This document shows positions 5,880 through 64,000 of a stretch of 64,000 nt of DNA, piece by piece. The DNA lies in the NCBI RefSeq assembly GCF_046105845.1, contig NZ_CP151004.1. One strand, written 5' to 3'. Position 1 is the first letter of the stretch, and each line of letters opens with the position of its first letter. The notes below the pieces were generated by a model. It did not search any database and was not told the origin of the DNA. It saw only the letters and a list, made by a program, of their open reading frames with translations. The stretch comes from Escherichia coli. GTDB lineage: Bacteria; Pseudomonadota; Gammaproteobacteria; Enterobacterales; Enterobacteriaceae. The position numbers were made by a program, and so were the translations under genes.

Positions 5880-5917
5880 ACGGTCCCGTTCTGGACCCTG
5901 ATAAAGAGGAAAGCACA

Positions 5918-6211: not shown

Positions 6212-6317
6212 TCACCCTGTGTGACGTCGATTCGGGCGTCACGCTCTCTCCTTTTTCAGTTTACCTTCCGCGGAGGGTAGGGGGAGCTTTTACCTGAAAT
6301 ACGCCACGGAGGCGGGT

Positions 6318-6605
6318 ATGAAACTGGCAGTCGTCACTGGACAAATTGTTTGTACCGTACGCCATCACGGACTGGCGCATGACAAATTGCTGATGGTGGA
6401 AATGATTGATCCACAAGGTAATCCTGACGGGCAATGTGCCGTCGCCATCGACAATATTGGCGCGGGAACCGGGGAGTGGGTGTTGCTGGTGAGTGGCAGT
6501 TCTGCCCGCCAGGCGCATAAAAGCGAAACGTCACCGGTCGATCTGTGCGTGATTGGCATCGTCGATGAGGTGGTGTCTGGCGGTCAGGTAATTTTCCACA
6601 AATAA
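6318..6605 (+). CDS. eutN: EutN microcompartment vertex protein (BMC-P)
   Basis: 95 aa MKLAVVTGQIVCTVRHHGL..; follows eutM. Confidence 0.92.
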   Translation: MKLAVVTGQIVCTVRHHGLAHDKLLMVEMIDPQGNPDGQCAVAIDNIGAGTGEWVLLVSGSSARQAHKSETSPVDLCVIGIVDEVVSGGQVIFHK

Positions 6606-6616
6606 GGCAGAACATC

Positions 6617-8020: not shown

Positions 8021-8030
8021 GGAGTAACCG

Positions 8031-8867
8031 ATGGCGCACGACGAACAATGGCTCACCCCACGTCTGCACATAGCGGCAACGCTGTGTAACCAGACGCCTG
8101 CCGCGACGGAATCTCCGCTGTGGCTGGGGGTGGATTTGGGCACCTGCGATGTGGTGTCGATGGTTGTTGACCGCGACGGTCAGCCGGTGGCGGTATGCCT
8201 CGACTGGGCTGATGTGGTCCGCGACGGCATCGTCTGGGATTTCTTCGGTGCGGTCACCATTGTTCGTCGCCATCTCGACACCCTCGAGCAGCAATTCGGT
8301 CGCCGTTTTAGCCATGCGGCGACCTCTTTTCCTCCAGGTACGGACCCGCGTATTTCCATCAACGTGCTGGAGTCTGCCGGGCTGGAAGTGAGCCATGTGC
8401 TGGATGAGCCAACCGCAGTCGCGGATCTGCTGCAACTGGACAACGCCGGTGTAGTGGATATCGGCGGTGGCACTACCGGCATTGCCATCGTGAAAAAGGG
8501 CAAGGTGACGTACTCGGCAGATGAAGCCACCGGCGGACATCACATCTCTCTGACTCTCGCCGGAAATCGTCGTATTTCGCTGGAAGAGGCAGAGCAGTAC
8601 AAGCGCGGTCACGGTGAAGAGATTTGGCCCGCGGTGAAACCGGTGTACGAAAAAATGGCGGACATTGTTGCCCGGCATATTGAAGGGCAGGGCATTACTG
8701 ATTTATGGCTGGCGGGCGGCTCCTGTATGCAACCGGGCGTGGCGGAACTGTTTTGCAAACAATTCCCGGCGTTACAGGTGCATCTACCGCAGCACAGTTT
8801 GTTTATGACCCCGCTGGCGATCGCCAGTAGCGGGCGAGAGAAAGCGGAGGGGATCTATGCAAAATGA
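8031..8867 (+). CDS. eutJ: EutJ Hsp70/actin-fold chaperone-like protein
   Basis: 278 aa; motifs DLGTCDV, VDIGGGTTGIA typical of actin/Hsp70 ATPase fold. Confidence 0.9.
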   Translation: MAHDEQWLTPRLHIAATLCNQTPAATESPLWLGVDLGTCDVVSMVVDRDGQPVAVCLDWADVVRDGIVWDFFGAVTIVRRHLDTLEQQFGRRFSHAATSFPPGTDPRISINVLESAGLEVSHVLDEPTAVADLLQLDNAGVVDIGGGTTGIAIVKKGKVTYSADEATGGHHISLTLAGNRRISLEEAEQYKRGHGEEIWPAVKPVYEKMADIVARHIEGQGITDLWLAGGSCMQPGVAELFCKQFPALQVHLPQHSLFMTPLAIASSGREKAEGIYAK

Positions 8868-10044
8868 ATTGCAGACCGCGCTCTTTCAGGCGTTCGATAC
8901 CCTGAATCTGCAACGGGTAAAAACATTTAGCGTTCCACCGGTGACGCTTTGCGGTCCGGGCGCGATGAGCAGTTGCGGGCAGCAAGCGCAAACGCGTGGG
9001 CTGAAACATCTGTTCGTGATGGCAGACAGCTTTTTGCATCAGGCGGGGATGACCGCCGGGCTGACGCGTAGCCTGGCCGTTAAAGGTATCGCCATGACGC
9101 TCTGGCCATGTCTGGTGGGCGAACCGTGCATCACCGACGTGTGTGCAGCCGTGGCGCAGTTGCGTGAATCGGGTTGCGATGGGGTGATCGCGTTTGGTGG
9201 TGGCTCGGTGCTGGATGCGGCAAAAGCCGTGGCGTTGCTGGTGACGAATCCCGATAGCACGCTGGCAGAAATGTCAGAAACCAGCATTCTGCAACCGCGC
9301 CTGCCGTTGATTGCCATTCCAACGACCGCCGGAACCGGCTCTGAAACCACCAACGTAACGGTGATTATCGACGCTGTGAGCGGGCGCAAGCAGGTGTTAG
9401 CCCACGCCTCGCTGATGCCGGATGTGGCGATTCTCGACGCTGCGCTGACCGAAGGCGTGCCGTCGCATGTCACGGCGATGACTGGCATTGATGCGTTAAC
9501 CCATGCTATTGAAGCGTACAGCGCGCTGAACGCGACACCGTTTACCGACAGCCTGGCGATTGGCGCAATCGCGATGATTGGTAAATCACTGCCGAAAGCG
9601 GTGGGCTACGGTCATGACCTTGCCGCGCGCGAGAGCATGTTGCTGGCTTCATGCATGGCGGGAATGGCGTTTTCCAGTGCGGGGCTTGGGTTATGCCACG
9701 CGATGGCGCATCAGCCGGGGGCGGCGCTGCATATTCCGCACGGTCTGGCGAACGCCATGTTGCTGCCAACGGTGATGGAATTTAACCGGATGGTTTGTCG
9801 TGAACGCTTTAGTCAGATTGGTCGGGCGCTGCGAACTAAAAAATCCGACGATCGTGACGCTATTAACGCGGTAAGTGAGCTGATTGCGGAAGTCGGGATT
9901 GGTAAACGACTGGGCGATATTGGTGCGACATCTGCGCATTACGGCGCATGGGCGCAGGCCGCGCTGGAAGATATTTGTCTGCGCAGCAACCCGCGTACCG
10001 CCAGCCTGGAGCAGATTATTGGTCTGTATGCTGCGGCGCAATAA
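8857..10044 (+). CDS. eutG: EutG iron-containing alcohol dehydrogenase
   Basis: 395 aa Fe-ADH-like translation; overlaps eutJ 3' end by 11 nt. Confidence 0.92.
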   Translation: MQNELQTALFQAFDTLNLQRVKTFSVPPVTLCGPGAMSSCGQQAQTRGLKHLFVMADSFLHQAGMTAGLTRSLAVKGIAMTLWPCLVGEPCITDVCAAVAQLRESGCDGVIAFGGGSVLDAAKAVALLVTNPDSTLAEMSETSILQPRLPLIAIPTTAGTGSETTNVTVIIDAVSGRKQVLAHASLMPDVAILDAALTEGVPSHVTAMTGIDALTHAIEAYSALNATPFTDSLAIGAIAMIGKSLPKAVGYGHDLAARESMLLASCMAGMAFSSAGLGLCHAMAHQPGAALHIPHGLANAMLLPTVMEFNRMVCRERFSQIGRALRTKKSDDRDAINAVSELIAEVGIGKRLGDIGATSAHYGAWAQAALEDICLRSNPRTASLEQIIGLYAAAQ

Positions 10045-10057
10045 AAGTGTACGGACA

Positions 10058-10160
10058 GTCCCCTCGCCCCTTTGGGGAGAGGGTTAGGGTGAGGGGAACA
10101 GAGTCGCGCCGGTGCAAACAATTACCCTCACCCCGGCCCCTCGGCTTCCAGAGTGAGGGA
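10058..10160. repeat. GC-rich palindromic intergenic repeat cluster (REP/BIME-like) between eutG and eutH
   Basis: cccctcgcccctttggggagagggttagggtgagggg ... ccctcaccccggcccctcgg; imperfect inverted repeats flanking a short spacer. Confidence 0.6.
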
Positions 10161-10213
10161 AAAACCCACTTTCAGCATTGGCAATAAATAACAACTAACA
10201 GGGAGTAAAGGTG

Positions 10214-11440
10214 ATGGGAATTAACGAAATCATCATGTACATCATGATGTTCTTTATGCTGATAGCTGCCGTAGACAGGATCCTGTCGCAGTTCGGTGGT
10301 TCTGCTCGTTTCCTCGGTAAGTTCGGTAAAAGTATCGAAGGATCAGGCGGGCAGTTTGAAGAAGGCTTTATGGCAATGGGCGCTCTGGGCCTGGCGATGG
10401 TCGGTATGACCGCGCTGGCACCGGTACTGGCTCACGTACTCGGGCCGGTAATTATCCCGGTTTACGAAATGCTCGGTGCAAACCCGTCAATGTTCGCCGG
10501 AACACTGCTGGCGTGCGATATGGGCGGGTTCTTCCTCGCCAAAGAGCTGGCGGGCGGCGACGTAGCAGCGTGGCTATACTCTGGGTTAATTCTCGGGTCG
10601 ATGATGGGGCCAACGATTGTGTTTTCCATTCCGGTGGCGCTCGGCATTATCGAACCTTCTGACCGTCGTTATCTGGCGCTCGGCGTGCTGGCGGGCATTG
10701 TGACCATTCCGATTGGCTGTATTGCTGGTGGTCTGGTTGCTATGTACTCCGGTGTGCAGATCAACGGTCAGCCGGTGGAATTCACCTTTGCGCTGATCCT
10801 GATGAACATGATCCCGGTACTTATCGTTGCGGTGCTGGTGGCGCTGGGGCTGAAATTCATCCCGGAAAAAATGATCAACGGCTTCCAGATCTTCGCCAAA
10901 TTCCTCGTTGCATTGATCACCCTCGGTCTTGCTGCCGCGGTAGTGAAATTCCTCCTTGGCTGGGAACTGATCCCCGGTCTGGATCCTATCTTTATGGCCC
11001 CTGGCGATAAACCCGGTGAAGTGATGCGCGCCATTGAAGTTATCGGTTCTATCTCCTGCGTTCTGTTAGGGGCGTACCCGATGGTACTGCTGCTGACTCG
11101 CTGGTTTGAAAAACCGCTGATGAGCGTCGGTAAAGTGCTGAATATGAACAACATCGCGGCAGCTGGCATGGTGGCAACGCTTGCCAACAATATCCCGATG
11201 TTCGGCATGATGAAGCAGATGGATACCCGCGGCAAAGTGATCAACTGTGCCTTCGCCGTTTCCGCTGCTTTCGCCCTGGGTGACCACTTAGGCTTCGCCG
11301 CTGCCAACATGAACGCCATGATTTTCCCGATGATTGTCGGCAAGTTGATCGGCGGCGTAACGGCGATTGGCGTGGCGATGATGCTGGTGCCAAAAGAAGA
11401 CGCGACCGCGGCCAAAACCGAAGTGGAGGCACAATCGTGA
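10214..11440 (+). CDS. eutH: EutH ethanolamine permease
   Basis: 408 aa polytopic membrane protein MGINEIIMYIMMFFMLIAAVD..; ATG at 10214 with ggag SD chosen over GTG at 10211. Confidence 0.9.
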   Translation: MGINEIIMYIMMFFMLIAAVDRILSQFGGSARFLGKFGKSIEGSGGQFEEGFMAMGALGLAMVGMTALAPVLAHVLGPVIIPVYEMLGANPSMFAGTLLACDMGGFFLAKELAGGDVAAWLYSGLILGSMMGPTIVFSIPVALGIIEPSDRRYLALGVLAGIVTIPIGCIAGGLVAMYSGVQINGQPVEFTFALILMNMIPVLIVAVLVALGLKFIPEKMINGFQIFAKFLVALITLGLAAAVVKFLLGWELIPGLDPIFMAPGDKPGEVMRAIEVIGSISCVLLGAYPMVLLLTRWFEKPLMSVGKVLNMNNIAAAGMVATLANNIPMFGMMKQMDTRGKVINCAFAVSAAFALGDHLGFAAANMNAMIFPMIVGKLIGGVTAIGVAMMLVPKEDATAAKTEVEAQS

Positions 11441-12840
11441 ACACTCGCCAGCTACTGAGCGTCGGTATCGATATCGGCACCACCACCACCCAGGTGATCT
11501 TCTCCCACCTGGAGCTGGTTAACCGTGCGGCGGTGTCGCAGGTGCCGCGCTACGAATTCATCAAACGCGAAATTAGCTGGCAAAGCCCGGTGTTCTTTAC
11601 CCCTGTCGATAAACAGGGTGGTTTAAAAGAAGCGGAACTGAAATCGCTGATTTTAGAGCAATATCAGGCTGCGGGCATTGCGCCGGAAAGCGTTGATTCT
11701 GGTGCCATCATCATCACCGGTGAAAGCGCGAAAACCCGCAACGCTCGCCCGGCGGTGATGACGCTCTCCCAGTCGCTGGGCGATTTTGTCGTCGCCAGCG
11801 CCGGGCCGCATCTCGAATCCGTGATCGCCGGTCACGGTGCCGGGGCGCAAACCCTTTCTGAACAACGGCTGTGTCGGGTCCTGAATATCGATATCGGCGG
11901 TGGCACCGCGAACTACGCCCTGTTCGATGCCGGAAAAATCAGCGGCACCGCCTGCCTCAACGTCGGCGGTCGCCTGCTGGAAACCGACAGCCAGGGGCGC
12001 GTGGTTTACGCTCATAAACCGGGGCAGATGATTGTGGATGAGTGCTTCGGTGCAGGCACTGACGCCCGTTCGCTGACCGGCGCGCAGCTGGTGCAGGTTA
12101 CCCGGCGGATGGCAGAACTGATTGTCGAAGTGATTGACGGAACGCTCTCGCCGCTCGCGCAGGCATTGATGCAAACCGGTTTGTTGCCCGCAGGTGTTAC
12201 GCCCGAAATCATTACGCTTTCTGGCGGCGTGGGCGAATGTTATCGCCACCAGCCCGCCGACCCGTTCTGTTTTGCCGATATCGGCCCGCTGCTGGCAACG
12301 GCGCTGCATGACCATCCGAGCCTGCGTGAGATGAACGTGCAGTTTCCGGCGCAAACCGTACGCGCCACGGTGATTGGCGCGGGTGCACATACCCTTTCGC
12401 TCTCTGGCAGCACAATCTGGCTGGAGGGCGTACAACTGCCGCTGCGCAATTTGCCGGTGGCGATCCCGATTGATGAAACGGATCTGGTGAGTGCCTGGCA
12501 ACAAGCGCTAATTCAACTGGATCTTTGCCCCAAAACTGACGCGTACGTGCTGGCGCTTCCCGCCTCGCTGCCTGTGCGTTACGCCGCGGTACTGACGGTC
12601 ATCAACGCGCTGGTCGATTTCGTCGCGCGTTTTCCGAATCCGCATCCCCTGCTGGTGGTGGCCGGGCAGGACTTTGGTAAAGCTCTGGGCATGTTGTTGC
12701 GCCCACAGCTACAACAACTCCCGTTGGCAGTCATTGACGAAGTGATTGTCCGCGCGGGGGACTATATCGACATTGGTACGCCTCTTTTTGGCCGATCGGT
12801 TGTGCCGGTGACGGTGAAATCACTCGCATTTCCTTCCTGA
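11437..12840 (+). CDS. eutA: EutA ethanolamine ammonia-lyase reactivase
   Basis: 467 aa; GTG start overlapping eutH stop; translation ..NTRQLLSVGIDIGTTTTQVIFS.. Confidence 0.9.
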   Translation: MNTRQLLSVGIDIGTTTTQVIFSHLELVNRAAVSQVPRYEFIKREISWQSPVFFTPVDKQGGLKEAELKSLILEQYQAAGIAPESVDSGAIIITGESAKTRNARPAVMTLSQSLGDFVVASAGPHLESVIAGHGAGAQTLSEQRLCRVLNIDIGGGTANYALFDAGKISGTACLNVGGRLLETDSQGRVVYAHKPGQMIVDECFGAGTDARSLTGAQLVQVTRRMAELIVEVIDGTLSPLAQALMQTGLLPAGVTPEIITLSGGVGECYRHQPADPFCFADIGPLLATALHDHPSLREMNVQFPAQTVRATVIGAGAHTLSLSGSTIWLEGVQLPLRNLPVAIPIDETDLVSAWQQALIQLDLCPKTDAYVLALPASLPVRYAAVLTVINALVDFVARFPNPHPLLVVAGQDFGKALGMLLRPQLQQLPLAVIDEVIVRAGDYIDIGTPLFGRSVVPVTVKSLAFPS

Positions 12841-12851
12841 GGGAACGACTT

Positions 12852-14213
12852 ATGAAACTAAAGACCACATTGTTCGGCAATGTATATCAGTTTAAGGATG
12901 TAAAAGAGGTGCTGGCTAAAGCCAACGAACTGCGTTCGGGGGATGTGCTGGCAGGCGTTGCAGCGGCAAGTTCACAGGAGCGCGTGGCGGCAAAGCAGGT
13001 GTTGTCGGAAATGACCGTAGCGGACATCCGCAATAATCCGGTGATTGCCTATGAAGATGACTGCGTGACGCGGCTGATTCAGGACGATGTTAACGAAACG
13101 GCCTACAACCAGATTAAAAACTGGAGCATCAGCGAACTGCGTGAGTATGTGCTAAGCGATGAAACCAGCGTGGACGACATTGCCTTTACCCGCAAAGGGC
13201 TGACCTCGGAAGTGGTCGCGGCGGTAGCGAAGATTTGCTCCAACGCGGACCTGATCTACGGCGCGAAGAAAATGCCGGTGATCAAAAAGGCCAATACCAC
13301 CATCGGTATTCCGGGCACCTTCAGCGCCCGCTTGCAGCCAAACGACACCCGTGACGACGTGCAAAGTATCGCCGCGCAAATCTACGAAGGGCTTTCCTTC
13401 GGGGTGGGCGATGCGGTGATCGGCGTTAACCCGGTGACTGACGACGTGGAAAACTTAAGCCGCGTGTTGGACACCATTTACGGCGTGATCGACAAATTCA
13501 ACATCCCAACTCAGGGCTGCGTGCTGGCGCACGTCACCACCCAGATTGAAGCGATCCGTCGTGGCGCACCAGGCGGGCTGATTTTCCAGAGTATCTGCGG
13601 CAGCGAAAAAGGGCTGAAAGAATTTGGCGTGGAGCTGGCGATGCTCGACGAAGCGCGCGCAGTGGGCGCAGAGTTCAATCGTATCGCCGGGGAAAACTGC
13701 CTCTACTTCGAAACCGGACAAGGTTCGGCGCTGTCTGCTGGCGCTAACTTCGGCGCAGACCAGGTGACGATGGAAGCGCGTAACTACGGGCTGGCGCGTC
13801 ATTACGATCCGTTTATCGTCAACACCGTGGTCGGCTTTATTGGGCCGGAGTATCTCTACAACGACCGCCAGATTATCCGTGCGGGCTTAGAAGATCACTT
13901 TATGGGTAAGCTGAGCGGCATCTCTATGGGCTGTGACTGCTGCTACACCAACCACGCTGACGCTGACCAGAACCTCAACGAAAACCTCATGATCCTGCTC
14001 GCCACCGCAGGCTGCAACTACATCATGGGGATGCCGCTGGGCGATGACATCATGCTCAACTATCAGACCACCGCATTCCACGACACTGCCACTGTGCGTC
14101 AGTTACTCAACCTGCGCCCGTCACCGGAGTTTGAACGCTGGCTGGAAAGCATGGGCATTATGGCAAACGGTCGCCTGACCAAACGGGCGGGCGATCCGTC
14201 ACTGTTCTTCTGA
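12852..14213 (+). CDS. eutB: Ethanolamine ammonia-lyase large subunit EutB
   Basis: 453 aa; begins 11 nt after eutA stop; recognised EutB translation. Confidence 0.95.
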   Translation: MKLKTTLFGNVYQFKDVKEVLAKANELRSGDVLAGVAAASSQERVAAKQVLSEMTVADIRNNPVIAYEDDCVTRLIQDDVNETAYNQIKNWSISELREYVLSDETSVDDIAFTRKGLTSEVVAAVAKICSNADLIYGAKKMPVIKKANTTIGIPGTFSARLQPNDTRDDVQSIAAQIYEGLSFGVGDAVIGVNPVTDDVENLSRVLDTIYGVIDKFNIPTQGCVLAHVTTQIEAIRRGAPGGLIFQSICGSEKGLKEFGVELAMLDEARAVGAEFNRIAGENCLYFETGQGSALSAGANFGADQVTMEARNYGLARHYDPFIVNTVVGFIGPEYLYNDRQIIRAGLEDHFMGKLSGISMGCDCCYTNHADADQNLNENLMILLATAGCNYIMGMPLGDDIMLNYQTTAFHDTATVRQLLNLRPSPEFERWLESMGIMANGRLTKRAGDPSLFF

Positions 14214-51984: not shown

Positions 51985-52005
51985 ATGAATTTGATAATCA
52001 TTCTC
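51985..52005 (+). promoter_or_regulatory. Putative Fur box in mntH promoter
   Basis: tgaatttgataatcattctcg resembles Fur consensus GATAATGATAATCATTATC; about 50 nt upstream of mntH. Confidence 0.55.
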
Positions 52006-52020
52006 GTTTGGCATAGCATG

Positions 52021-52042
52021 AAACATAGCAAAGGCTATGTTT
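52021..52042 (+). promoter_or_regulatory. Putative MntR operator in mntH promoter
   Basis: Perfect inverted repeat aaacatagc-aaag-gctatgttt, 13 nt upstream of mntH start. Confidence 0.6.
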
Positions 52043-52045
52043 TAG

Positions 52046-53293
<1,248 letters not shown>

Positions 53294-53321
53294 TTCAACT
53301 GGCGTCGTACCAGGCATCACT

Positions 53322-53410
53322 GGCGGATGCGGCGTAAAACGCCTTATCCGCCCTATGCGTTAAAGAGACGGTTTGTAGGTCTGATAAGACGCGCTAGCGT
53401 CGCATCAGGC
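53322..53410. repeat. BIME: two REP palindromes between mntH and ypeC
   Basis: ggcggatgcggcgtaaaacgccttatccgcc and gtaggtctgataagacgcgctagcgtcgcatcaggc. Confidence 0.85.
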
Positions 53411-53434
53411 ATTGTGCTCCATTGGCGAATGTGT

Positions 53435-53761
53435 TTAATGGCGGTGTCCATGTCCGCGGCCTTTTCCACGATGATCGTCACGATCGCGCCAGCCTTCACG
53501 ATAGCCACGCTCATACGCTTTACGCTTATCCCAGCCACGATGGTAGCCATTATCATGACGCCACCAGCGGTTCTTACGCCATTCATAATTGCGATGCCAG
53601 TAGTCACGGTCGCGCCAGTGACCACCGTCCCAGTAATTACCGTAATGATCGCGATCGCCAATTTGTAATTTGATTGATGGCAGTAGGGTGATTTCACCTG
53701 CGTTTGCCGCAAGCGGGGTAAATGCCATCAGGGCGGCCGCCAGAAACAGTGACCTGAACAT
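53435..53761 (-). CDS. ypeC: Secreted basic repeat protein YpeC (DUF2502)
   Basis: 108 aa [21 protein letters not shown].. signal peptide then periodic H/R/D/W-rich repeats ([29 protein letters not shown]..). Confidence 0.88.
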
Positions 53762-53875
53762 TGTTATTCTCCTTCACGATCGAAGCCGTCAGCGGCCTGT
53801 TAACGCAATATTACGGGGAGGTAAAGCCCCGTATCATCGCCATAACTCTTAAATCATAAAGGAGAGCATTTTTTG

Positions 53876-55132
53876 CTAAACGTTATCGTGGGGGGGCTGT
53901 TGCTTCGGACGATTGACCATCATCATCGGCTTACCTGCTAATAACAGCCATGCCGGAAGCATGACGATACAGAGCAGCGGTAGCAATGTGGTATTGGGTA
54001 CAACGACTGCCGCCATAAAAAGACTTAACCAGCCATCGCGTGTTACCACCAGCACGATGCCGAGAATAGCGCAGGAAACGGTTATTGCCGCTGGAACGGC
54101 GGGAACGTGCTCATGCAGCATCAACCCTAATGCCACCCCGACAAACACTGCCGGGAAGATTCGCCCACCGCGAAAGCCACTGGCGGCAGCAACGACCAGG
54201 GCGGCAAGTTTAATTACCGCCAGCAAAAAGTAATCGCTGGTGCTGAAAGCCTGATTTGCCACCATCTGCTGCATCTCATCCAGCCCTTTAAACAGCGAAA
54301 CTGGTCCACCCATAACCCCCAGAATACCGAGAATAAATCCGCCAATACCCAGCACGAGCACCGGATTTTTCATTTGATGCATCATCGCGTGCAACCGTGG
54401 TAAGCACCATACGGCGACCATCCCTGCTGCGATGGCAATCGCCGCGACAATTGCACCGCTGAGAATATCGGTCATTTCCATTTTTCCGTAATGCGCAATG
54501 GGCAGTGAAAAATGGGGATGGAAAAATAATCCGGTAGTAAGTGCACCAGCTGCTGCCGCCATTAACGGCGCAAAAAGACGATCCCATAGCGGAACTTCAC
54601 TACTACCATTTAAGGTTTGCGAAAATATCAACGCCGCCGCAACAGGTGTGCCAAACAGTGCGCCGATGGTGCCGGCAGAGGCTAAAATAGTCCACTCCAT
54701 TCGGTTGACGCGCGGTAACAGACGAGCGCCAATGGCAACCGCAAGGGCGATATTGACGGTCATGATCGGATGTTCCGGCCCCAGGCTGACGCCGCCAGCA
54801 AGACCGAGAATTAATGCTACGATAAGTCCAGGTAGCGCAGAGGGCGGAACCGGTGCGCCGATCAGCGGTTCACAGGCGGGGTCTGGTCCAGCATGCCCCT
54901 GGCTGAAACGGATAACCAACCCCACCGCAATACCTGTTAGCGTTAATATGGCGATGATCCAGAAAGGTGAATCCTGAGCTATCCCCAGAGTTCCCGGCAG
55001 TCGTTGCCAGAGCAAATTCTGTAATACCGAGGCGATTTTCATCACCACAATCAGAATAAGACTGGACGCAATCCCAATTGCCACGGCGGGGAGCGATAAT
55101 AACAACATGGTTCTGGCTCGCGGATGGAGCAT
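53876..55132 (-). CDS. yfeO: Putative ion-transport membrane protein YfeO (ClC channel-like)
   Basis: 418 aa polytopic membrane protein [32 protein letters not shown].. Confidence 0.9.
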
Positions 55133-55335
55133 GTTCTATTCCTTATGCGGGGTCAGATACTTAGTTTGCCCAGCTTGCAAAAAGGCATCGCTGCAATTGG
55201 TGCTGAAACGATAAAGTAATTGTGTGACCCAGATCGATATTTACAGGGAGCCTGCCTTTCCGGCGTTGTTGTTATGCCCCCAGGTATTTACAGTGTGAGA
55301 AAGAATTATTTTGACTTTAGCGGAGCAGTTGAAGA

Positions 55336-56301
55336 ATGACAAAGTATGCATTAGTCGGTGATGTGGGCGGCACCAACGCACGTCTTGCTCTGTGTGATAT
55401 TGCCAGTGGTGAAATCTCGCAGGCTAAGACCTATTCAGGGCTTGATTACCCCAGCCTCGAAGCGGTCATTCGCGTTTATCTTGAAGAACATAAGGTCGAG
55501 GTGAAAGACGGCTGTATTGCCATCGCTTGCCCAATTACCGGTGACTGGGTGGCAATGACCAACCATACCTGGGCGTTCTCAATTGCCGAAATGAAAAAGA
55601 ATCTCGGTTTTAGCCATCTGGAAATTATTAACGATTTTACCGCTGTATCGATGGCGATCCCGATGCTGAAAAAAGAGCATCTGATTCAGTTTGGTGGCGC
55701 AGAACCGGTCGAAGGTAAGCCTATTGCGGTTTACGGTGCCGGAACGGGGCTTGGGGTTGCGCATCTGGTCCATGTCGATAAGCGTTGGGTAAGCTTGCCA
55801 GGCGAAGGCGGTCACGTTGATTTTGCGCCGAATAGTGAAGAAGAGGCCATTATCCTCGAAATACTGCGTGCAGAAATTGGTCATGTTTCGGCGGAACGCG
55901 TGCTTTCTGGCCCAGGACTGGTGAATTTGTATCGCGCAATTGTTAAAGCCGACAACCGCCTGCCAGAAAATCTCAAGCCAAAAGATATTACCGAACGCGC
56001 GCTGGCTGACAGCTGCACCGATTGCCGCCGTGCGTTGTCGCTGTTTTGCGTCATTATGGGCCGTTTTGGCGGCAATCTGGCGCTCAATCTCGGGACATTT
56101 GGCGGCGTGTTTATTGCGGGTGGTATCGTGCCGCGCTTCCTTGAGTTCTTCAAAGCCTCTGGTTTCCGTGCCGCATTTGAAGATAAAGGGCGCTTTAAAG
56201 AATATGTCCATGATATTCCGGTGTATCTCATCGTCCATGACAATCCGGGTCTTCTCGGTTCCGGTGCACATTTACGCCAGACCTTAGGCCACATTCTGTA
56301 A
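55336..56301 (+). CDS. glk: Glucokinase Glk
   Basis: 321 aa [35 protein letters not shown].. Confidence 0.97.
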
Positions 56302-56314
56302 CTCCTTCCTGTTA

Positions 56315-56345
56315 TATCGGGAGGTAACTCTCCCGATAATCTTTT
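56315..56345 (+). terminator. Rho-independent terminator after glk
   Basis: tatcgggag-gtaact-ctcccgata hairpin followed by atctttt. Confidence 0.75.
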
Positions 56346-56519
56346 AAATCATACAGTTAATTCAATTTTCCTTTGTGTCCCCTCACAAGGCCGACCTGCG
56401 TCACACTTCCGTACAGCGGGATTAATTCTCCAGTAAATGCATTATTTGTCTGGTAACGGCGATTTGTTTTGCACGTTCATAATTTCACTCGTCAACTATC
56501 ACTGAACGAGGAATTAACG

Positions 56520-56846
56520 ATGAGTAAGAAACTGATTGCCTTATGTGCCTGCCCGATGGGCCTGGCTCACACCTTTATGGCCGCTCAGGCGCTGGAAGAA
56601 GCGGCGGTAGAAGCCGGTTATGAAGTGAAAATTGAAACCCAGGGTGCGGACGGCATCCAGAACCGCCTGACGGCGCAGGATATCGCCGAAGCGACCATCA
56701 TCATCCACTCCGTGGCGGTTACCCCGGAAGATAACGAACGTTTCGAATCACGCGACGTTTATGAAATCACTTTGCAGGACGCAATTAAAAATGCTGCGGG
56801 CATCATCAAAGAAATCGAAGAGATGATTGCCTCTGAACAACAGTAA
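56520..56846 (+). CDS. fryB: PTS fructose-like EIIB component FryB
   Basis: 108 aa MSKKLIALCACPMGLAHTFMAAQALEEAA.. (EIIB-Fru-type CxxC phosphorylation site); ORF-track extension rejected. Confidence 0.92.
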   Translation: MSKKLIALCACPMGLAHTFMAAQALEEAAVEAGYEVKIETQGADGIQNRLTAQDIAEATIIIHSVAVTPEDNERFESRDVYEITLQDAIKNAAGIIKEIEEMIASEQQ

Positions 56847-56867
56847 TATTCGACAGGGATAATTGTT

Positions 56868-58115
56868 ATGGCCATTAAAAAACGCAGTGCAACCGTTGTG
56901 CCTGGCGCATCCGGTGCGGCAGCGGCAGTTAAGAATCCGCAGGCCTCTAAAACCAGCTTCTGGGGTGAACTCCCGCAGCATGTGATGTCAGGGATTTCAC
57001 GCATGGTGCCGACCTTAATTATGGGCGGTGTGATCCTCGCTTTCAGCCAGCTGATTGCTTATAGCTGGCTTAAAATTCCTGCTGAGATCGGCATCATGGA
57101 TGCTCTTAATAGCGGGAAATTCTCCGGTTTCGACCTCTCCTTACTTAAATTTGCCTGGCTGTCGCAGTCCTTCGGCGGCGTGTTGTTTGGTTTCGCCATT
57201 CCGATGTTTGCTGCATTTGTGGCGAACTCTATAGGTGGCAAACTGGCGTTTCCGGCTGGTTTTATCGGCGGCTTGATGTCTACCCAGCCGACGCAACTGC
57301 TGAACTTCGATCCCAGCACTATGCAATGGGCGACCTCTTCGCCGGTGCCGTCCACCTTCATTGGTGCGCTGATTATTTCTATCGTTGCCGGTTACCTTGT
57401 GAAATGGATGAACCAGAAAATCCAGTTACCGGATTTCCTGTTAGCGTTCAAAACCACATTTTTGCTACCGATTCTTTCCGCCATTTTTGTCATGCTGGCG
57501 ATGTACTACGTCATCACCCCCTTTGGCGGCTGGATCAACGGCGGTATTCGTACCGTGCTGACTGCCGCAGGTGAGAAGGGCGCGCTGATGTACGCGATGG
57601 GGATCGCCGCGGCGACAGCAATCGACCTTGGTGGCCCGATCAACAAAGCCGCAGGTTTCGTTGCCTTCAGCTTTACCACGGACCACGTATTACCGGTCAC
57701 CGCACGTTCTATCGCTATCGTTATTCCGCCGATTGGTCTGGGTCTGGCGACCATTATTGACCGTCGTTTAACCGGCAAACGCCTGTTCAGTGCTCAGCTT
57801 TATCCGCAGGGTAAAACCGCCATGTTCCTGGCCTTTATGGGGATCAGTGAAGGTGCGATTCCGTTTGCACTGGAAAGCCCCATCACCGCCATTCCGTCGT
57901 ATATGGTCGGCGCGATTGTCGGCTCAACCGCCGCTGTCTGGCTGGGCGCAGTGCAATGGTTCCCGGAATCCGCTATCTGGGCATGGCCACTGGTCACTAA
58001 CCTCGGCGTCTACATGGCGGGGATCGCGCTGGGGGCAGTCATAACTGCGCTGATGGTGGTGTTCCTGCGTCTGATGATGTTCCACAAAGGTAAATTGTTA
58101 ATCGATAGCCTGTAA
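56868..58115 (+). CDS. fryC: PTS fructose-like EIIC component FryC
   Basis: 415 aa polytopic membrane protein. Confidence 0.93.
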
Positions 58116-58129
58116 GAAGGACAATCCTG

Positions 58130-59215
58130 ATGACATTACTCGCTTCGCTGCGCGACTGGCTTAAGGAGCAACAACTGGATGCGGTGCTTCTCTCCTCACG
58201 GCAGAACAAACAGCCGCATCTGGGGATCTCCACCGGATCAGGCTATGTGGTGATTAGCCGTGTAAGTGCGCACATTCTGGTGGATTCGCGCTACTACGCG
58301 GATGTCGAAGCCCGCACGCAAGGCTACCAGCTGCATTTGCTTGACGCGACGAACACGCTTACCACTATCGTCAATCAAATCATTGCCGATGAGCAGTTGC
58401 AAGCGCTCGGTTTTGAAGGCCAGCAGGTATGTTGGGAAACCGCGCACCGCTGGCAGTCTGAACTCAATGCGAAACTGGTTAGCGCCACGCCGGATGTGCT
58501 GCGGCAAATCAAAACGCCAGAGGAGGTGGAGAAAATCCGCCTCGCCTGTGGGATTGCCGATCGCGGTGCTGAGCATATTCGCCGCTTTATTCAGGCGGGG
58601 ATGAGCGAGCGCGAGATAGCCGCTGAACTGGAGTGGTTTATGCGCCAGCAGGGCGCAGAAAAAGCCTCTTTCGATACCATTGTCGCCAGCGGCTGGCGTG
58701 GGGCGCTGCCGCACGGCAAAGCCAGCGACAAGATTGTTACAGCGGGCGAGTTTGTCACTCTCGATTTCGGTGCGCTGTATCAGGGCTACTGCTCTGATAT
58801 GACGCGCACCTTGCTGGTGAATGGCGAAGGGGTGAGCGCCGAATCTCACCCGCTGTTTAACGTCTATCAAATTGTCCTGCAGGCACAGCTCGCAGCAATC
58901 TCCGCGATTCGCCCCGGCGTGCGCTGCCAGCAGGTTGACGACGCCGCGCGCCGGGTCATTACAGAAGCAGGTTATGGCGACTATTTCGGTCATAACACCG
59001 GTCATGCTATCGGCATTGAAGTCCATGAAGAGCCGCGTTTTTCACCGCGGGATACCACGACGCTACAGCCAGGCATGTTACTGACCGTGGAGCCGGGGAT
59101 TTATTTGCCAGGGCAAGGGGGCGTGCGCATCGAAGATGTTGTGCTGGTCACCCCGCAAGGCGCAGAAGTGCTCTACGCCATGCCGAAAACAGTGTTGCTC
59201 ACGGGAGAGGCATAA
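58130..59215 (+). CDS. ypdF: Xaa-Pro aminopeptidase-family metallopeptidase YpdF (M24)
   Basis: 361 aa with pita-bread fold motifs (..[13 protein letters not shown]..). Confidence 0.92.
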
Positions 59216-60252
59216 TGGATTTATCGTTATTAAAAGCGTTGAGCGAGGCAGATGCGATAGCCTCCTCGGAACAGGAAGTACGGCAGATCCTGCTGGAAGA
59301 AGCGGATCGCCTGCAAAAAGAAGTGCGATTTGATGGGCTGGGATCGGTGCTGATCCGCCTCAATGAATCGACAGGTCCGAAGGTGATGATCTGTGCGCAT
59401 ATGGACGAAGTGGGATTTATGGTGCGCAGCATCTCCCGCGAAGGGGCGATCGATGTGTTGCCGGTTGGCAATGTACGCATGGCTGCCCGCCAGCTTCAGT
59501 CGGTGCGTATCACTACCCGTGAAGAGTGCAAAATTCCAGGCCTACTTGACGGCGACCGGCAGGGGAATGATGTCAGCGCCATGCGCGTGGACATTGGTGC
59601 GCGCTCGTATGACGAAGTGATGCAGGCGGGAATTCGTCCAGGCGATCGCGTCACCTTTGATACAACTTTTCAGGTTCTCCCTCACCAGCGGGTGATGGGG
59701 AAAGCCTTTGATGATCGCCTCGGTTGCTATCTGCTGGTGACGTTACTACGTGAGCTGCACGACGCCGAACTGCCTGCGGAGGTGTGGCTGGTGGCAAGTT
59801 CCAGCGAAGAGGTGGGATTACGCGGCGGGCAAACTGCCACCCGCGCGGTGTCGCCGGACGTCGCCATTGTGCTTGATACCGCCTGCTGGGCGAAAAACTT
59901 TGATTATGGCGCGGCTAACCATCGTCAGATTGGTAACGGGCCGATGCTGGTGTTAAGCGATAAATCGCTGATTGCGCCGCCAAAACTTACCGCGTGGATT
60001 GAAACCGTGGCGGCAGAAATTGGCGTGCCGTTGCAGGCGGATATGTTCAGCAACGGTGGCACGGACGGTGGGGCGGTGCACTTAACCGGCACTGGCGTAC
60101 CCACAGTGGTGATGGGGCCTGCCACCCGCCACGGACATTGCGCGGCATCGATTGCCGATTGTCGCGACATTTTGCAGATGCAGCAACTTTTATCTGCCCT
60201 TATTCAACGTCTTACGCGTGAGACGGTTGTTCAACTGACGGATTTCAGATGA
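59215..60252 (+). CDS. ypdE: M42-family aminopeptidase YpdE
   Basis: 345 aa; start overlaps ypdF stop. Confidence 0.92.
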
Positions 60253-60276
60253 TCTCCTGATTAACCCGGAGCGGTT

Positions 60277-62772
60277 ATGCTAACGATTCAATTTCTCTGT
60301 CCTTTGCCTAACGGTCTGCATGCTCGTCCGGCGTGGGAACTTAAAGAACAGTGCAGCCAGTGGCAAAGCGAAATCACCTTCATCAACCATCGCCAGAACG
60401 CAAAGGCAGATGCCAAAAGCTCGCTGGCGCTGATTGGCACTGGCACTTTATTTAATGACAGTTGCAGCCTGAACATTAGCGGCAGCGATGAAGAGCAGGC
60501 GCGGCGCGTGCTGGAAGAGTACATCCAGGTGCGCTTTATCGACAGCGACAGCATTCAGCCGACGCAGGCAGAACTGACGGCGCATCCGCTGCCGCGTTCA
60601 TTAAGCCGTCTGAATCCTGATTTACTGTACGGCAATGTGCTGGCAAGCGGCGTCGGCGTGGGTACGCTGACCCTGTTACAGAGCGACAGCCTCGACAGTT
60701 ATCGGGCCATCCCGGCCAGTGCGCAAGACTCCACCCGGCTGGAGCACAGCCTGGCAACGCTTGCCGAGCAACTGAACCAGCAGCTGCGTGAGCGTGACGG
60801 CGAAAGCAAAACTATCCTCAGCGCCCATTTGTCGCTGATTCAGGATGATGAATTTGCAGGCAATATCCGTCGCCTTATGGCAGAACAGCATCAGGGGCTG
60901 GGGGCGGCGATCATCAGCAATATGGAGCAGGTTTGCGCCAAACTATCTGCTTCTGCCAGCGATTATCTGCGCGAGCGGGTCAGCGACATTCGCGATATCA
61001 GCGAACAGTTGCTGCATATCACCTGGCCGGAACTGAAGCCGCGCAACAATCTGGTGCTGGAAAAACCGACTATTCTGGTGGCCGAGGATTTAACCCCAAG
61101 CCAGTTTTTGAGCCTCGATTTAAAAAATCTTGCGGGCATGATTCTGGAGAAAACCGGGCGCACCTCGCATACCCTGATTCTGGCCCGTGCCTCGGCGATC
61201 CCGGTACTGAGTGGCTTGCCGCTGGATGCGATCGCGCGCTATGCCGGGCAACCGGCAGTGCTTGACGCCCAGTGCGGCGTGCTGGCGATTAACCCTGATG
61301 ACGCGGTGAGCGGTTATTATCAGGTCGCGCAGACGCTGGCGGATAAACGCCAAAAACAACAGGCGCAGGCCGCCGCGCAGCTGGCCTATTCCCGTGATAA
61401 CAAGCGTATTGATATTGCGGCGAATATCGGCACCGCTCTGGAAGCGCCAGGCGCGTTTGCCAACGGCGCGGAAGGTGTTGGGCTGTTCCGTACTGAAATG
61501 CTCTATATGGATCGCGACAGCGCGCCGGACGAGCAGGAGCAATTTGAAGCCTACCAGCAGGTGCTACTGGCGGCGGGCGACAAGCCGATTATCTTCCGCA
61601 CGATGGACATCGGCGGCGATAAAAGCATTCCTTATCTGAATATTCCCCAGGAAGAGAACCCGTTCCTCGGCTATCGCGCGGTACGTATTTACCCGGAATT
61701 TGCGGGCCTGTTCCGCACTCAACTGCGGGCCATTTTGCGCGCCGCCAGTTTCGGCAACGCCCAGTTGATGATCCCAATGGTTCACAGCCTCGATCAGATC
61801 TTATGGGTGAAGGGCGAGATCCAAAAAGCGATCGTTGAGCTTAAGCGCGATGGCCTGCGTCATGCAGAGACGATTACGCTGGGTATCATGGTGGAAGTGC
61901 CGTCGGTGTGCTACATCATCGATCACTTCTGCGATGAGGTAGATTTCTTCAGTATCGGCTCCAACGATATGACCCAGTATCTGTATGCGGTCGATCGTAA
62001 TAACCCGCGCGTATCGCCGCTGTATAACCCGATTACGCCATCGTTCCTGCGCATGTTGCAGCAGATTATTACCACTGCGCATCAGCGGGGTAAATGGGTA
62101 GGCATTTGCGGTGAACTGGGCGGTGAAAGCCGTTATCTGCCGCTACTGCTTGGGCTGGGCCTGGACGAGTTAAGTATGAGTAGCCCGCGCATTCCGGCGG
62201 TGAAAAGCCAGCTTCGTCAACTGGATAGCGAGGCGTGTCGGGAACTGGCGCGTCAGGCATGTGAATGCCGCAGCGCGCAGGAAATTGAAGCGTTACTCAC
62301 CGCCTTTACGCCGGAAGAAGACGTTCGCCCACTGCTGGCGCTGGAGAATATCTTTGTTGATCAGTCCTTTAGCAATAAAGAGCAGGCGATCCAGTTCCTG
62401 TGCGGTAACCTCGGCGTTAACGGGCGCACTGAACATCCGTTCGAGCTGGAAGAGGATGTCTGGCAGCGGGAAGAGATTGTTACCACCGGCGTTGGTTTTG
62501 GCGTAGCGATCCCGCACACCAAATCTCAGTGGATCCGTCATTCCAGTATCAGCATTGCCCGGCTGGTGAAACCGGTTGACTGGCAGTCAGAAATGGGCGA
62601 AGTCGAACTGGTGATCATGCTGACACTGGGCGCTAACGAAGGGATGAATCATGTGAAAGTCTTCTCGCAGCTGGCGCGTAAACTGGTGAATAAAAACTTC
62701 CGCCAGTCGCTGTTCGCCGCGCAAGATGCGCAAAGCATCCTGACGCTGCTGGAAACGGAATTAACCTTCTGA
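60277..62772 (+). CDS. fryA: PTS multiphosphoryl transfer protein FryA (fused HPr-like, Enzyme I-like and EIIA-like domains)
   Basis: 831 aa; N-terminal HPr-like domain (..LHARPA..), central EI-like PEP-utilising domain (..GGRTSHT.., ..SIGSNDMTQY..), C-terminal EIIA-like domain. Confidence 0.93.
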   Translation: MLTIQFLCPLPNGLHARPAWELKEQCSQWQSEITFINHRQNAKADAKSSLALIGTGTLFNDSCSLNISGSDEEQARRVLEEYIQVRFIDSDSIQPTQAELTAHPLPRSLSRLNPDLLYGNVLASGVGVGTLTLLQSDSLDSYRAIPASAQDSTRLEHSLATLAEQLNQQLRERDGESKTILSAHLSLIQDDEFAGNIRRLMAEQHQGLGAAIISNMEQVCAKLSASASDYLRERVSDIRDISEQLLHITWPELKPRNNLVLEKPTILVAEDLTPSQFLSLDLKNLAGMILEKTGRTSHTLILARASAIPVLSGLPLDAIARYAGQPAVLDAQCGVLAINPDDAVSGYYQVAQTLADKRQKQQAQAAAQLAYSRDNKRIDIAANIGTALEAPGAFANGAEGVGLFRTEMLYMDRDSAPDEQEQFEAYQQVLLAAGDKPIIFRTMDIGGDKSIPYLNIPQEENPFLGYRAVRIYPEFAGLFRTQLRAILRAASFGNAQLMIPMVHSLDQILWVKGEIQKAIVELKRDGLRHAETITLGIMVEVPSVCYIIDHFCDEVDFFSIGSNDMTQYLYAVDRNNPRVSPLYNPITPSFLRMLQQIITTAHQRGKWVGICGELGGESRYLPLLLGLGLDELSMSSPRIPAVKSQLRQLDSEACRELARQACECRSAQEIEALLTAFTPEEDVRPLLALENIFVDQSFSNKEQAIQFLCGNLGVNGRTEHPFELEEDVWQREEIVTTGVGFGVAIPHTKSQWIRHSSISIARLVKPVDWQSEMGEVELVIMLTLGANEGMNHVKVFSQLARKLVNKNFRQSLFAAQDAQSILTLLETELTF

Positions 62773-62774
62773 CG

Positions 62775-63632
62775 TTAGCCCTGAAAACGGGCGCTGTACT
62801 CTCCCGGCGTCAGGCCAAACTGACGCCGGAAAACGCGACAAAAATAGTCGCTGTCCGGAAAACCGCAACGCTGTGCCACTTCATGAATCGACAGATGATA
62901 TTTCTGCAAAATCATCCTCGCCTTCGCCATTCGCACCCAACGCACATATTCGATAAAACGCATTGTTCCATGCTGCGCAAACAGTTTTGACAGATGATTG
63001 GGCGTGATATTAAAAAACTGCGCCACGCTCTCACGGGTGAGCGGCTGGGCATAATTATCCTGAACCCAGTTACAAATGCTGTGATAGAGAAAATCGCCGC
63101 GCGGCTGCGAATTGCCCGGCGGCATATTCACCACGTTACGGCAAAGATGCAGCAAACTTAACACCAGCGGCTGAATGATATTCTGCTCCAGCGGCGAACG
63201 GCTAAGATGGGTGAGGGCAGTAAGCATTGCTTCACCTTCGCCGCGTTGCAGGCTGGGAAGTTGGATCTGGCGAGCAGGATGTAACAACGACGTGGTGCGG
63301 CTATCGTAAAATGATAAGCCAAGCCAGGTCGGTGCGAACACCAGGCTTAACAGCATCACCGGTTTGTTGTTGACCGGTAAATTAGCCGCGCGTGCCGGAA
63401 TAAACAGCATTTCTCCTTCCACCATACGTTGCTGCTTTGCTTCCAGCAGATTGCCGTATTCGCCGCGTAGCACGATATCCAGACGGGGAAAATCAATACA
63501 TAAACTGCCCACTGGCAATGAGGCAGGCTGGCTGGCAAACCAGACGCGCCCCAGTAGTTGCGGGTTAAGCACCAGGCCGCTGAACAGATCGGCGAAAAAT
63601 TGTTGATCGGCGGGCAAGCCTGGTGCTTTCAT
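62775..63632 (-). CDS. ypdC: AraC-family transcriptional regulator YpdC
   Basis: 285 aa with C-terminal AraC-type HTH; stop 2 nt from fryA stop (convergent). Confidence 0.9.
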   Translation of the reverse strand: MKAPGLPADQQFFADLFSGLVLNPQLLGRVWFASQPASLPVGSLCIDFPRLDIVLRGEYGNLLEAKQQRMVEGEMLFIPARAANLPVNNKPVMLLSLVFAPTWLGLSFYDSRTTSLLHPARQIQLPSLQRGEGEAMLTALTHLSRSPLEQNIIQPLVLSLLHLCRNVVNMPPGNSQPRGDFLYHSICNWVQDNYAQPLTRESVAQFFNITPNHLSKLFAQHGTMRFIEYVRWVRMAKARMILQKYHLSIHEVAQRCGFPDSDYFCRVFRRQFGLTPGEYSARFQG

Positions 63633-63644
63633 GAAAGTTCCCGA

Positions 63645-64000
63645 TTAAAGATGCATTAACTGGCGGAATTCTTTAACTTTGCTGCGGCTGACCGGCACTT
63701 CAAAATCCAGATCTTTCAGCCGCAGAATATAGGTGTTATTAAACCACGGTTCGATCTCGCGGATTTTGTTCAGATTGACACAAAATGAGCGATGGCAGCG
63801 GAAAAAATGCGACGGCGGCAGCTTGCTGCAAAACTCGGTAATGTTCATCGGCATTACGTAGGATTCACGCCGCGTATAGACAAAGGTCATTTTCTCGTGC
63901 GCTTCGGCGTAATAGATATCGTTAATTGGCGTGACAATGATTCGCTCATCTTTCACCAGATTAATGGTGTCATTCTCACGCGTTACCGTCGCGGCAGGCG
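63645..64000 (-). CDS. ypdB: LytTR-family response regulator YpdB, C-terminal part only (gene continues beyond window end)
   Basis: Open frame from window edge to stop at 63645; translation ends ..SRSKVKEFRQLMHL, a LytTR DNA-binding domain; N-terminal receiver domain outside window. Confidence 0.85.
   Translation of the reverse strand, partial: PAATVTRENDTINLVKDERIIVTPINDIYYAEAHEKMTFVYTRRESYVMPMNITEFCSKLPPSHFFRCHRSFCVNLNKIREIEPWFNNTYILRLKDLDFEVPVSRSKVKEFRQLMHL

Follow-up and report, generated by a model that had tools for sequence, protein, structure and literature searches.

Among the described systems closest to the fry locus of Escherichia coli, a phosphotransferase system (PTS) operon that also carries two aminopeptidase genes, the characterized one is MngA/MngB of the same organism (PMC2815779). 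This PTS for 2-O-alpha-mannosyl-D-glycerate likewise pairs a fructose-family permease with a cytoplasmic hydrolase encoded next in line, which splits the phosphorylated conjugate and so releases a sugar phosphate. Other relatives are the uncharacterized PTS operons frvABXR and sgcXBCQAER, each with an M42 protein, and a Firmicute module of the order PRD regulator-IIA-IIB-IIC-M24-(M42 or M20)-PatB, for example the Clostridioides difficile operon CD2484-CD2490 with the adjacent pmi gene CD2491 (PMC3510511). In this study, we analyzed a stretch of 64,000 nucleotides of E. coli DNA (the window; contig NZ_CP151004.1, assembly GCF_046105845.1), of which a six-gene region is the already annotated fryBC-ypdFE-fryA operon together with its neighbor ypdC, a known locus. 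Judged from its distribution across genomes, the transporter-plus-peptidase pairing of this locus is an old, conserved unit. With a probability that we place at about 0.5, fry would be a self-contained phosphorelay for the uptake and phosphorylation of a sugar bound to an amino acid or peptide, possibly a mannosyl conjugate, which YpdF and YpdE then trim.

The FryC-family alignment was scanned over a collection with one genome per species, and the surrounding genes were labeled by open reading frame (ORF) and tblastn, which yielded 80 loci. An M24 peptidase gene directly follows the IIB-IIC pair in 61 of them, in Enterobacterales as well as Firmicutes. The 36 enterobacterial loci show the order IIB-IIC-M24-M42-FryA (two are cut by contig ends), and two further loci in Rahnella read LacI-M20-IIB-IIC-M24. 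The Firmicute loci fall into a first type, PRD regulator-IIA-IIB-IIC-M24-M42-PatB (15 loci), a second type that includes C. difficile, M20-regulator-IIA-IIB-IIC-M24-PatB (8 loci), and one locus with M24-PatB but without M20. Seventeen loci carry an alpha-mannosidase gene of family GH38 (regulator-IIA-IIB-IIC-GH38), and a single locus in Streptobacillus consists of IIA-IIB-IIC-PatB alone. In the first Firmicute type, the M24 proteins are 43-49% identical to YpdF and the M42 proteins 40-49% identical to YpdE, and the best NCBIfam matches of the Firmicute M24 and M42 proteins are the YpdF and YpdE models. The aminotransferase-fold gene matches TIGR04350, the PatB family of C-S lyases, at or above the NCBIfam cut-off, and PatB is kept after fryA in one Enterobacterales genome. 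The M20 gene encodes a Sapep/PepV dipeptidase by NCBIfam, with a match below cut-off to the Cys-Gly-3M3SH dipeptidase model. RidA genes lie near three loci. Among the other conserved neighbors of the 44 non-enterobacterial loci, no family was found in more than six; the one recurrent family is mannose-6-phosphate isomerase, which adjoins 5-6 of the 26 non-enterobacterial peptidase-type loci and none of the GH38 type.

The original prediction had called the coupling of a PTS to peptidases unusual. This is true when fry is set against textbook PTS operons, but not otherwise, given the spread of the pairing over two phyla and the fact that all three M42 paralogs of E. coli (YpdE, FrvX and SgcX) are encoded in uncharacterized PTS operons of different permease lineages. 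By the distribution of these paralogs, the link between PTS and M42 has arisen or been kept at least three times. In the K-12 sequences used for the comparison, frv occupies positions 7856-10824 of one stretch and sgc positions 6107-11652 of another.

Wider searches gave a similar picture. A FryC search of 1.84 billion cluster representatives returned few relatives; homologs of 39-44% identity adjoin a GH38 alpha-mannosidase, longer contigs adding GH13 and, in two cases, then glycerate kinase, and a homolog of 54% lies in a cluster with RidA, AlaDh_PNT, RpiR, EIIABC, M24, M20 and the aminotransferase-fold gene. A low-GC contig supplied a tenth-lineage example of the permease-peptidase pairing. 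A second FryC search recovered many relatives of 60-68% identity in Clostridia, Negativicutes, Streptococcus suis and Rahnella, in the contexts IIB-IIC-M24 or IIB-IIC-GH38. In the neighbor-joining tree of IIC proteins, the FryC family forms one clade, within which permeases from GH38 loci and from peptidase loci are intermingled; the group from Enterobacterales stands beside the Firmicute M24-M42-PatB group. FryC shares merely 27-29% identity with the IIC domains of FruA, FrwC, MngA and FrvB of K-12, and on its separate clade in the tree it is the founding member of a distinct FryC family. In the C. difficile genome of the collection, positions 4675-13667 of the contig correspond to CD2484-CD2491 and hold M20, PRD regulator, IIA, IIB, IIC, M24, PatB and a divergent mannose-6-phosphate isomerase gene; this counterpart operon has been reported to be regulated by glucose and CcpA and to be up at 48 h in deoxycholate-induced biofilm formation. 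An assembly titled Chryseobacterium sp. 18061 holds an Enterobacter-like fry locus (FryC 74% identical) with the full IIB-IIC-M24-M42-FryA-AraC order, and this assembly is probably contaminated or mislabeled.

Compared with these systems, the window locus is identical in genes, order, lengths and junctions to the fryBC-ypdFE-fryA/ypdC region of E. coli K-12 (b2387-b2382), and nothing of substance differs. The GH38 partner of MngA/MngB is also found in the FryC-family sister loci, and the outgroup loci with GH38, GH13 and glycerate kinase resemble that system. FryC, however, is only 28% identical to the IIC domain of MngA and belongs to a separate clade, and it was therefore rejected as a direct ortholog of MngA; furthermore, fry has two metallopeptidases in the place of MngB and its own EI-HPr-IIA protein (EI, enzyme I). 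Pfam found no glycoside hydrolase domain in the six proteins, the GH38 enzyme being confined to the 17 sister loci. The likeness of frv and sgc to fry lies in their M42 proteins (FrvX 35% and SgcX 32% identical to YpdE), whereas their permeases are of other families or lineages (27% identity for the FrvB IIC, galactitol family for Sgc), and both lack an M24 partner and a dedicated EI/HPr and have other regulators. The Firmicute module has orthologous IIB, IIC and M24 genes (in 15 loci also M42) in the same order, but its IIA is a separate protein, it draws on the general EI and HPr of the cell, its activator is of the PRD and not of the AraC type, and PatB is nearly always present.

The features of the locus in the window are collected in Table 1. 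Pfam gave every domain named in the original prediction for the six genes, in the predicted order, and RefSeq annotation of a homologous E. coli record carries identical gene names and lengths. The tight packing and the start/stop overlap that had been described are confirmed as well: the successive spacings of the five operon genes are 21, 14, -1 and 24 nt, the one-base overlap of ypdF and ypdE reading TAATG. The convergence of the AraC-type gene ypdC on fryA is equally real, the two stop codons flanking the 2 bp at 62773-62774. The regulator gene lies 12 nt after ypdB and is the last gene of ypdABC in E. coli. For fryB, the ORF program extended the frame to an alternative TTG start at 56469; the true start is the ATG of the table, with GAGGAA at 56508-56513 ahead of it and the predicted -10 box upstream.

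Table 1. Coordinates of the fry region in the window, counted from its first nucleotide
Feature	Position	Strand	Description
terminator-like hairpin	56315-56338	+	10-pair stem (5 GC pairs), then T-rich tail; after glk (end 56301)
CRP-like site	56390-56405	+	GCCGA-N6-TCACA; center about -92.5 from predicted transcription start
direct repeat R1	56419-56436	+	GGATTAATTCTCCAGTAA; predicted YpdC site
direct repeat R2	56439-56456	+	GCATTATTTGTCTGGTAA; predicted YpdC site
-10 hexamer	56478-56483	+	CATAAT; 1.87 bits/column across 19 lineages, always 38-39 nt after R2
fryB	56520-56846	+	108 aa, complete ORF without internal stops; PTS enzyme IIB
fryC	56868-58115	+	415 aa, complete ORF without internal stops; PTS enzyme IIC, membrane permease
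ypdF	58130-59215	+	361 aa, complete ORF without internal stops; M24B aminopeptidase, Xaa-Pro type
ypdE	59215-60252	+	345 aa, complete ORF without internal stops; M42 aminopeptidase
fryA	60277-62772	+	831 aa, complete ORF without internal stops; fused HPr-EI-EIIA phosphoryl transfer protein
ypdC	62775-63632	-	285 aa, complete ORF without internal stops; AraC/XylS-family regulator
ypdB, 3' part	63645-64000	-	response regulator, cut by window end; named from annotation of a homologous E. coli record

Of 5426 complete E. coli genomes, 5424 contain the locus. The best nucleotide identity of the 8-kb region (56000-64000) to these genomes is 98.5%, with many strains tied, and the window thus stems from E. 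coli or Shigella but from a lineage that has no exact match among them. Among 5465 matching places, one is a plasmid and not a chromosome. The loci of cryptic-clade Escherichia are 93-94% identical to the window; a genome titled Escherichia coli strain SCPM-O-B-8794 has a cryptic-clade-like locus with 93% nucleotide identity, and its species label is doubtful. An Rfam scan of 52000-64000 gave no RNA family match. The statement that this is a known locus with an undefined substrate stands, as RefSeq names the locus and our full-text literature search for a published substrate of the fry operon found none; no function had been assigned to the operon as of 2017 (PMC5364489).

The proteins of the phosphorelay are equipped for phosphoryl transfer. 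FryA comprises by Pfam an HPr domain (6-84), an EI domain (119-650) and an EIIA_2 domain (687-826), with the motifs of H15 (GLHARPA), H298 (GRTSHT), C611 (ICGELGG) and H747 (VAIPHT), so that a complete EI to HPr to EIIA chain with its catalytic histidines is present; over its full length it is 45% identical to PtsA of the frw cluster of K-12. FryB is a PTS_IIB protein (PF02302 type, 71.2 bits) with the phosphorylatable Cys11 within LCACPMGLAHT, and its identity to IIB of the sister loci in Firmicutes and Fusobacteria is 58-80%. FryC matches PTS_EIIC (PF02378) at 51.9 bits against a cut-off of 30.7. The domains and the conserved Cys place the fry permease system in the Fru family, with homology of 27-45% to FruA, FrwC, FrvB and MngA. 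Some E. coli assemblies encode fused products, either FryC-YpdF of 657-688 aa (EIIC, Creatinase_N and M24) or EIIC-M42 of 653 aa, which presumably go back to frameshifts or small deletions that bridged the short gaps between the genes.

Both peptidases retain the residues of active enzymes. YpdF matches Peptidase_M24 (248 bits) and Creatinase_N (65 bits) in Pfam and NF007310 at 810.9 bits; its metal ligands D212, D223, H292, E321 and E335 are invariant in 19 orthologs down to 40% identity, and a solved structure, PDB 5CNX, is titled 'Aminopeptidase YpdF'. YpdE matches Peptidase_M42 (287.7 bits) and NF007421 (680.9 bits), and its metal and catalytic residues H62, D64, D166, E198, E199, D221 and H308 are invariant in orthologs down to 40% identity, and also in FrvX and SgcX. 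Its structural match is PDB 1YLO, the near-identical SF2450 of Shigella flexneri. The activity of YpdE was characterized earlier by Zheng and colleagues in 2005, as cited in PMC3511314, and the latter paper mentions, from unpublished data, that the protein is dodecameric.

If fry does import a sugar conjugate, its steps would be as follows. FryA would take phosphate from phosphoenolpyruvate on its EI domain (H298) and pass it through its own HPr (H15) and EIIA (H747) to Cys11 of FryB, which would phosphorylate the cargo during its passage through the membrane by FryC. The cargo would not be a plain sugar but one linked to a short peptide or a single amino acid, with an alpha-mannoside-like group as the leading candidate for its head. 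In the cytoplasm, the peptide part would be trimmed by the M24 enzyme YpdF, of the Xaa-Pro type, and the M42 enzyme YpdE, of broad specificity. In most relatives outside Enterobacterales, a PatB-type pyridoxal phosphate (PLP) beta-lyase of the operon would then detach the last residue by beta-elimination and leave the sugar phosphate free. Transcription of fryB would start from a promoter without a -35 element, with YpdC on two 20-bp direct repeats and probably CRP.

First, what follows the permease is, depending on the locus, either peptidases (with PatB) or GH38, and these enzymes would therefore be expected to act on the imported phosphorylated compound. Second, the two kinds of loci suggest that the head group is alike in both, probably alpha-mannosyl, and the adjacent mannose-6-phosphate isomerase genes suggest a mannose product. 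Third, the occurrence of PatB alone in Streptobacillus and of RidA at three loci fits PLP-dependent beta-elimination from a terminal Ser, Thr or Cys, although a PatB step that frees the sugar phosphate is speculative. The original prediction had proposed sugar-modified peptides as substrates, and in kind this agrees with the comparative data; the glycated form that it had in mind fares less well, as discussed below. In its most specific version, which we put forward tentatively and consider rather unlikely as worded, the Fry family would be a PTS for glyco-amino acids or small glycopeptides, such as the alpha-mannosyl-Ser/Thr peptides of fungal or host glycoproteins. These would be phosphorylated on entry and trimmed by M24 and M42/M20 peptidases, PatB in most lineages releasing mannose-6-phosphate, pyruvate and ammonia, and of this route E. 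coli would retain uptake and trimming, driven by a YpdC/CRP promoter.

Several points weigh against the conjugate reading and its details. The main weakness is that PatB and GH38 are both missing from the operon in E. coli and most Enterobacterales, which leaves the release of the sugar phosphate unaccounted for. The nearby alaC gene was considered as a stand-in for the missing PatB and rejected, with just 23% identity to PatB-like proteins, with which it has no more than the fold class in common. In addition, PatB enzymes are C-S lyases, and a C-O elimination from glycosyl-serine is not a documented activity of theirs; we infer it ourselves. More generally, the nature of the cargo and the role given to PatB are deduced from gene neighborhood, the IIC tree lacks bootstrap support, and adjacency to mannose-6-phosphate isomerase is limited to the few loci given above. 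YpdE and YpdF are said, in work attributed to Zheng and colleagues in 2005, to cleave ordinary peptides in vitro. As for the regulator, YpdC showed no binding sites in ChIP-exo (chromatin immunoprecipitation with exonuclease digestion) under the tested conditions (PMC8464067).

The alternative that survives best takes the cargo to be a cysteine S-conjugate or thio-linked sugar-peptide, for example of an S-glycosyl or S-polyhydroxyalkyl Cys-Gly type, which the peptidases trim before PatB cuts the C-S bond. Here the PLP enzyme would carry out the documented chemistry of the family to which NCBIfam assigns it, and the M20 partner, a Sapep/PepV dipeptidase with its below-cut-off match to the Cys-Gly-3M3SH model, would be in place. 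A dipeptidase followed by PatB is also the published route by which Staphylococcus hominis dismantles a Cys-Gly-S-conjugate (PMC11742315, PMC7385124); this Cys-Gly-3M3SH pathway uses the M20 dipeptidase PepA and a PatB-family lyase on an amino-acid conjugate, as would the M20/PatB loci, but its substrate carries no sugar and enters through a peptide transporter instead of a PTS, and fry of E. coli has neither M20 nor PatB. However, sister loci with GH38 and neighboring genes for mannose-6-phosphate isomerase point to O-glycosides, and the absence of PatB from the E. coli operon counts against a thio-linked cargo as well. Moreover, the spread of the module in gut Firmicutes and Enterobacterales would call for an abundant natural sugar-S-cysteine peptide, and none is known to us. 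We consider a thio-linked cargo unlikely.

Slightly less likely still is that FryABC is an ordinary sugar or polyol PTS, with ypdF and ypdE as housekeeping aminopeptidases that merely share the transcript. The RefSeq name of the permease, 'PTS fructose transporter', and the reported cleavage of ordinary peptides by both enzymes would agree with this. The recurrence of M24 after the permease across phyla, with conserved order and gaps near zero, speaks against a chance association, and so does the glycosidase that fills the same position in the sister loci; in addition, Pfam found no sugar-phosphate kinase, aldolase or isomerase in the E. coli operon.

We hold a glycated cargo to be improbable. 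In this reading, FryABC would import an Amadori or Heyns product of a peptide or amino acid (a fructosyl-peptide, for instance), the fructose-family PTS would phosphorylate its C6, and the peptidases would free the glycated residue. The permease is indeed of the fructose PTS family and peptidases are in the operon, and PTS uptake of Amadori compounds occurs in the mannose-family gfr system. Yet the frl, fra and gfr pathways use SIS-domain deglycases and kinases, and no SIS or kinase domain was found by Pfam in the six proteins, nor does a recurrent one occur in the 61 peptidase-type loci. Glycation at the N terminus blocks aminopeptidases, and PatB, GH38 and mannose-6-phosphate isomerase would have no role in such chemistry.

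The locus had also been called cryptic. In the sense of decay this is contradicted by the data, which show that fry is under purifying selection and is not decaying. The ratio of nonsynonymous to synonymous substitution rates (dN/dS) was 0.02-0.18 for all six genes in pairwise comparisons with an Escherichia cryptic-clade genome, Citrobacter, Salmonella and Enterobacter, similar to 0.02-0.07 for the neighbor glk in the same comparison. Mutants have phenotypes: a ypdE deletion of strain UTI89 was outcompeted in the bladder of mice (competitive index 0.30; PMC8767336), and a 48-bp in-frame deletion in fryA gave better growth in lysogeny broth after prolonged culture (PMC5364489). With intact ORFs, purifying selection and mutant phenotypes, 'cryptic' can mean just that no inducer is known. 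The view that evolution has left E. coli with a silent remnant here, or that the phosphorelay serves regulation alone and has no part in transport, would accord with the want of a laboratory phenotype or inducer, of YpdC binding peaks and of the PatB part of the ancestral module, but it is highly improbable in view of the intact and constrained genes with their invariant catalytic residues, at least 80% of the 8-kb region being held by 5413 of the 5426 complete E. coli genomes, the conserved promoter block, the two mutant fitness effects, and the full membrane IIC, which the regulatory nitrogen PTS lacks.

The expression of a conjugate importer would be set by a promoter block of about 90 bp upstream of fryB, which is conserved at fixed spacing in 19 genus-level lineages independently of the flanking genes. 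Its upstream boundary, and that of the fry unit, is the hairpin after glk. The two direct repeats are offset by 20 bp and span about -71 to -31; in the same lineages they are conserved at 0.92 and 0.93 bits/column, and their distance from the -10 box is constant irrespective of the genes on either side. Their pattern, which was derived from these two sites, has no other match in the 64 kb at up to one mismatch, with 0.02 expected by chance. The CRP-like site has a conserved right half but, in E. coli, a weak left half; GA-N6-TCACA recurs at fixed spacing in the 19 lineages with a mean of 0.80 bits/column, against 0.34-0.37 in the flanking spacers. The -35 position reads AACGGC, no usable hexamer, within a variable spacer, and transcription is predicted to start near 56490, about 30 nt upstream of fryB. 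A generic scan for sigma-70 promoters and terminators gave counts at chance level and missed the fryB promoter because it has no -35; a scan match at 56834-56863 was rejected as not above background. The layout recalls araBAD-type promoters, controlled by AraC and CRP, in which two direct-repeat half-sites likewise lie over a missing -35 and a CRP-like site near -92.5. It differs from them in that the YpdC and CRP sites of fry are predicted from sequence and that no upstream looping site was identified for fry.

From this arrangement, we infer that YpdC is a dedicated activator of the fry promoter, with predicted binding to R1 and R2, and the promoter is probably CRP-dependent through the predicted site. 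YpdC carries its helix-turn-helix at residues 204-281 (HTH_18 74.3 bits, HTH_AraC 49.1 bits), and residues 1-200, presumably ligand-binding, matched no Pfam family even at E = 1. A YpdC-like gene adjoins fry in 29 enterobacterial loci, 18 of which have neither ypdAB nor the glk/yfeO flank, and in 19 of 28 loci, fryA and ypdC stand tail to tail with no more than 6 bp between them. The suggested control of fry by YpdAB is thus unlikely, as a YpdC-like gene stays beside fry in those 18 loci, and YpdAB as the controller is not supported; ypdAB accompanies fry in just 11 of the 36 enterobacterial loci. YpdAB is a pyruvate-sensing system whose known target is yhjX, and by these neighborhoods it is probably a later neighbor of fry, with ypdB no part of the fry unit. 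Overproduction of CpxR raises ypdF and fryA 1.5-1.9 fold (PMC2731931).

Some observations concern the junction of fryA with ypdC and its surroundings. No terminator-like hairpin lies between the two convergent genes (62755-62795), so antisense read-through of each into the other is expected, and this could couple the expression of the operon and its regulator. Citrobacter and Salmonella have 104-1134 bp inserted at this place, against at most 6 bp in most genera. In Salmonella enterica subsp. diarizonae and arizonae, alaC lies directly after ypdC and ypdAB is absent.

With fryABC and ypdEF, E. coli K-12 has a set of named, near-universally conserved genes with solved structures and no physiological role. 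What is added here to the known locus is a sharper, testable substrate hypothesis and a predicted regulatory site. With a permease-peptidase-(PatB) module shared across phyla, the choice of candidate substrates narrows to sugar-amino-acid conjugates, and the GH38 sister loci and mannose-6-phosphate isomerase neighbors point to a mannose head group. The defined promoter block with its predicted YpdC sites could be used as a reporter for inducer screening, and the bladder fitness defect of the ypdE mutant suggests host relevance. If the Fry family did handle alpha-mannosyl glyco-amino acids by way of PatB, this would be a glycosidase-free route of deglycosylation that is evolutionarily interchangeable with GH38. 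Should the conjugate idea be true, it would establish a new class of PTS cargo and would explain what the homologous operons of gut anaerobes, CD2484-CD2490 of C. difficile among them, are for.

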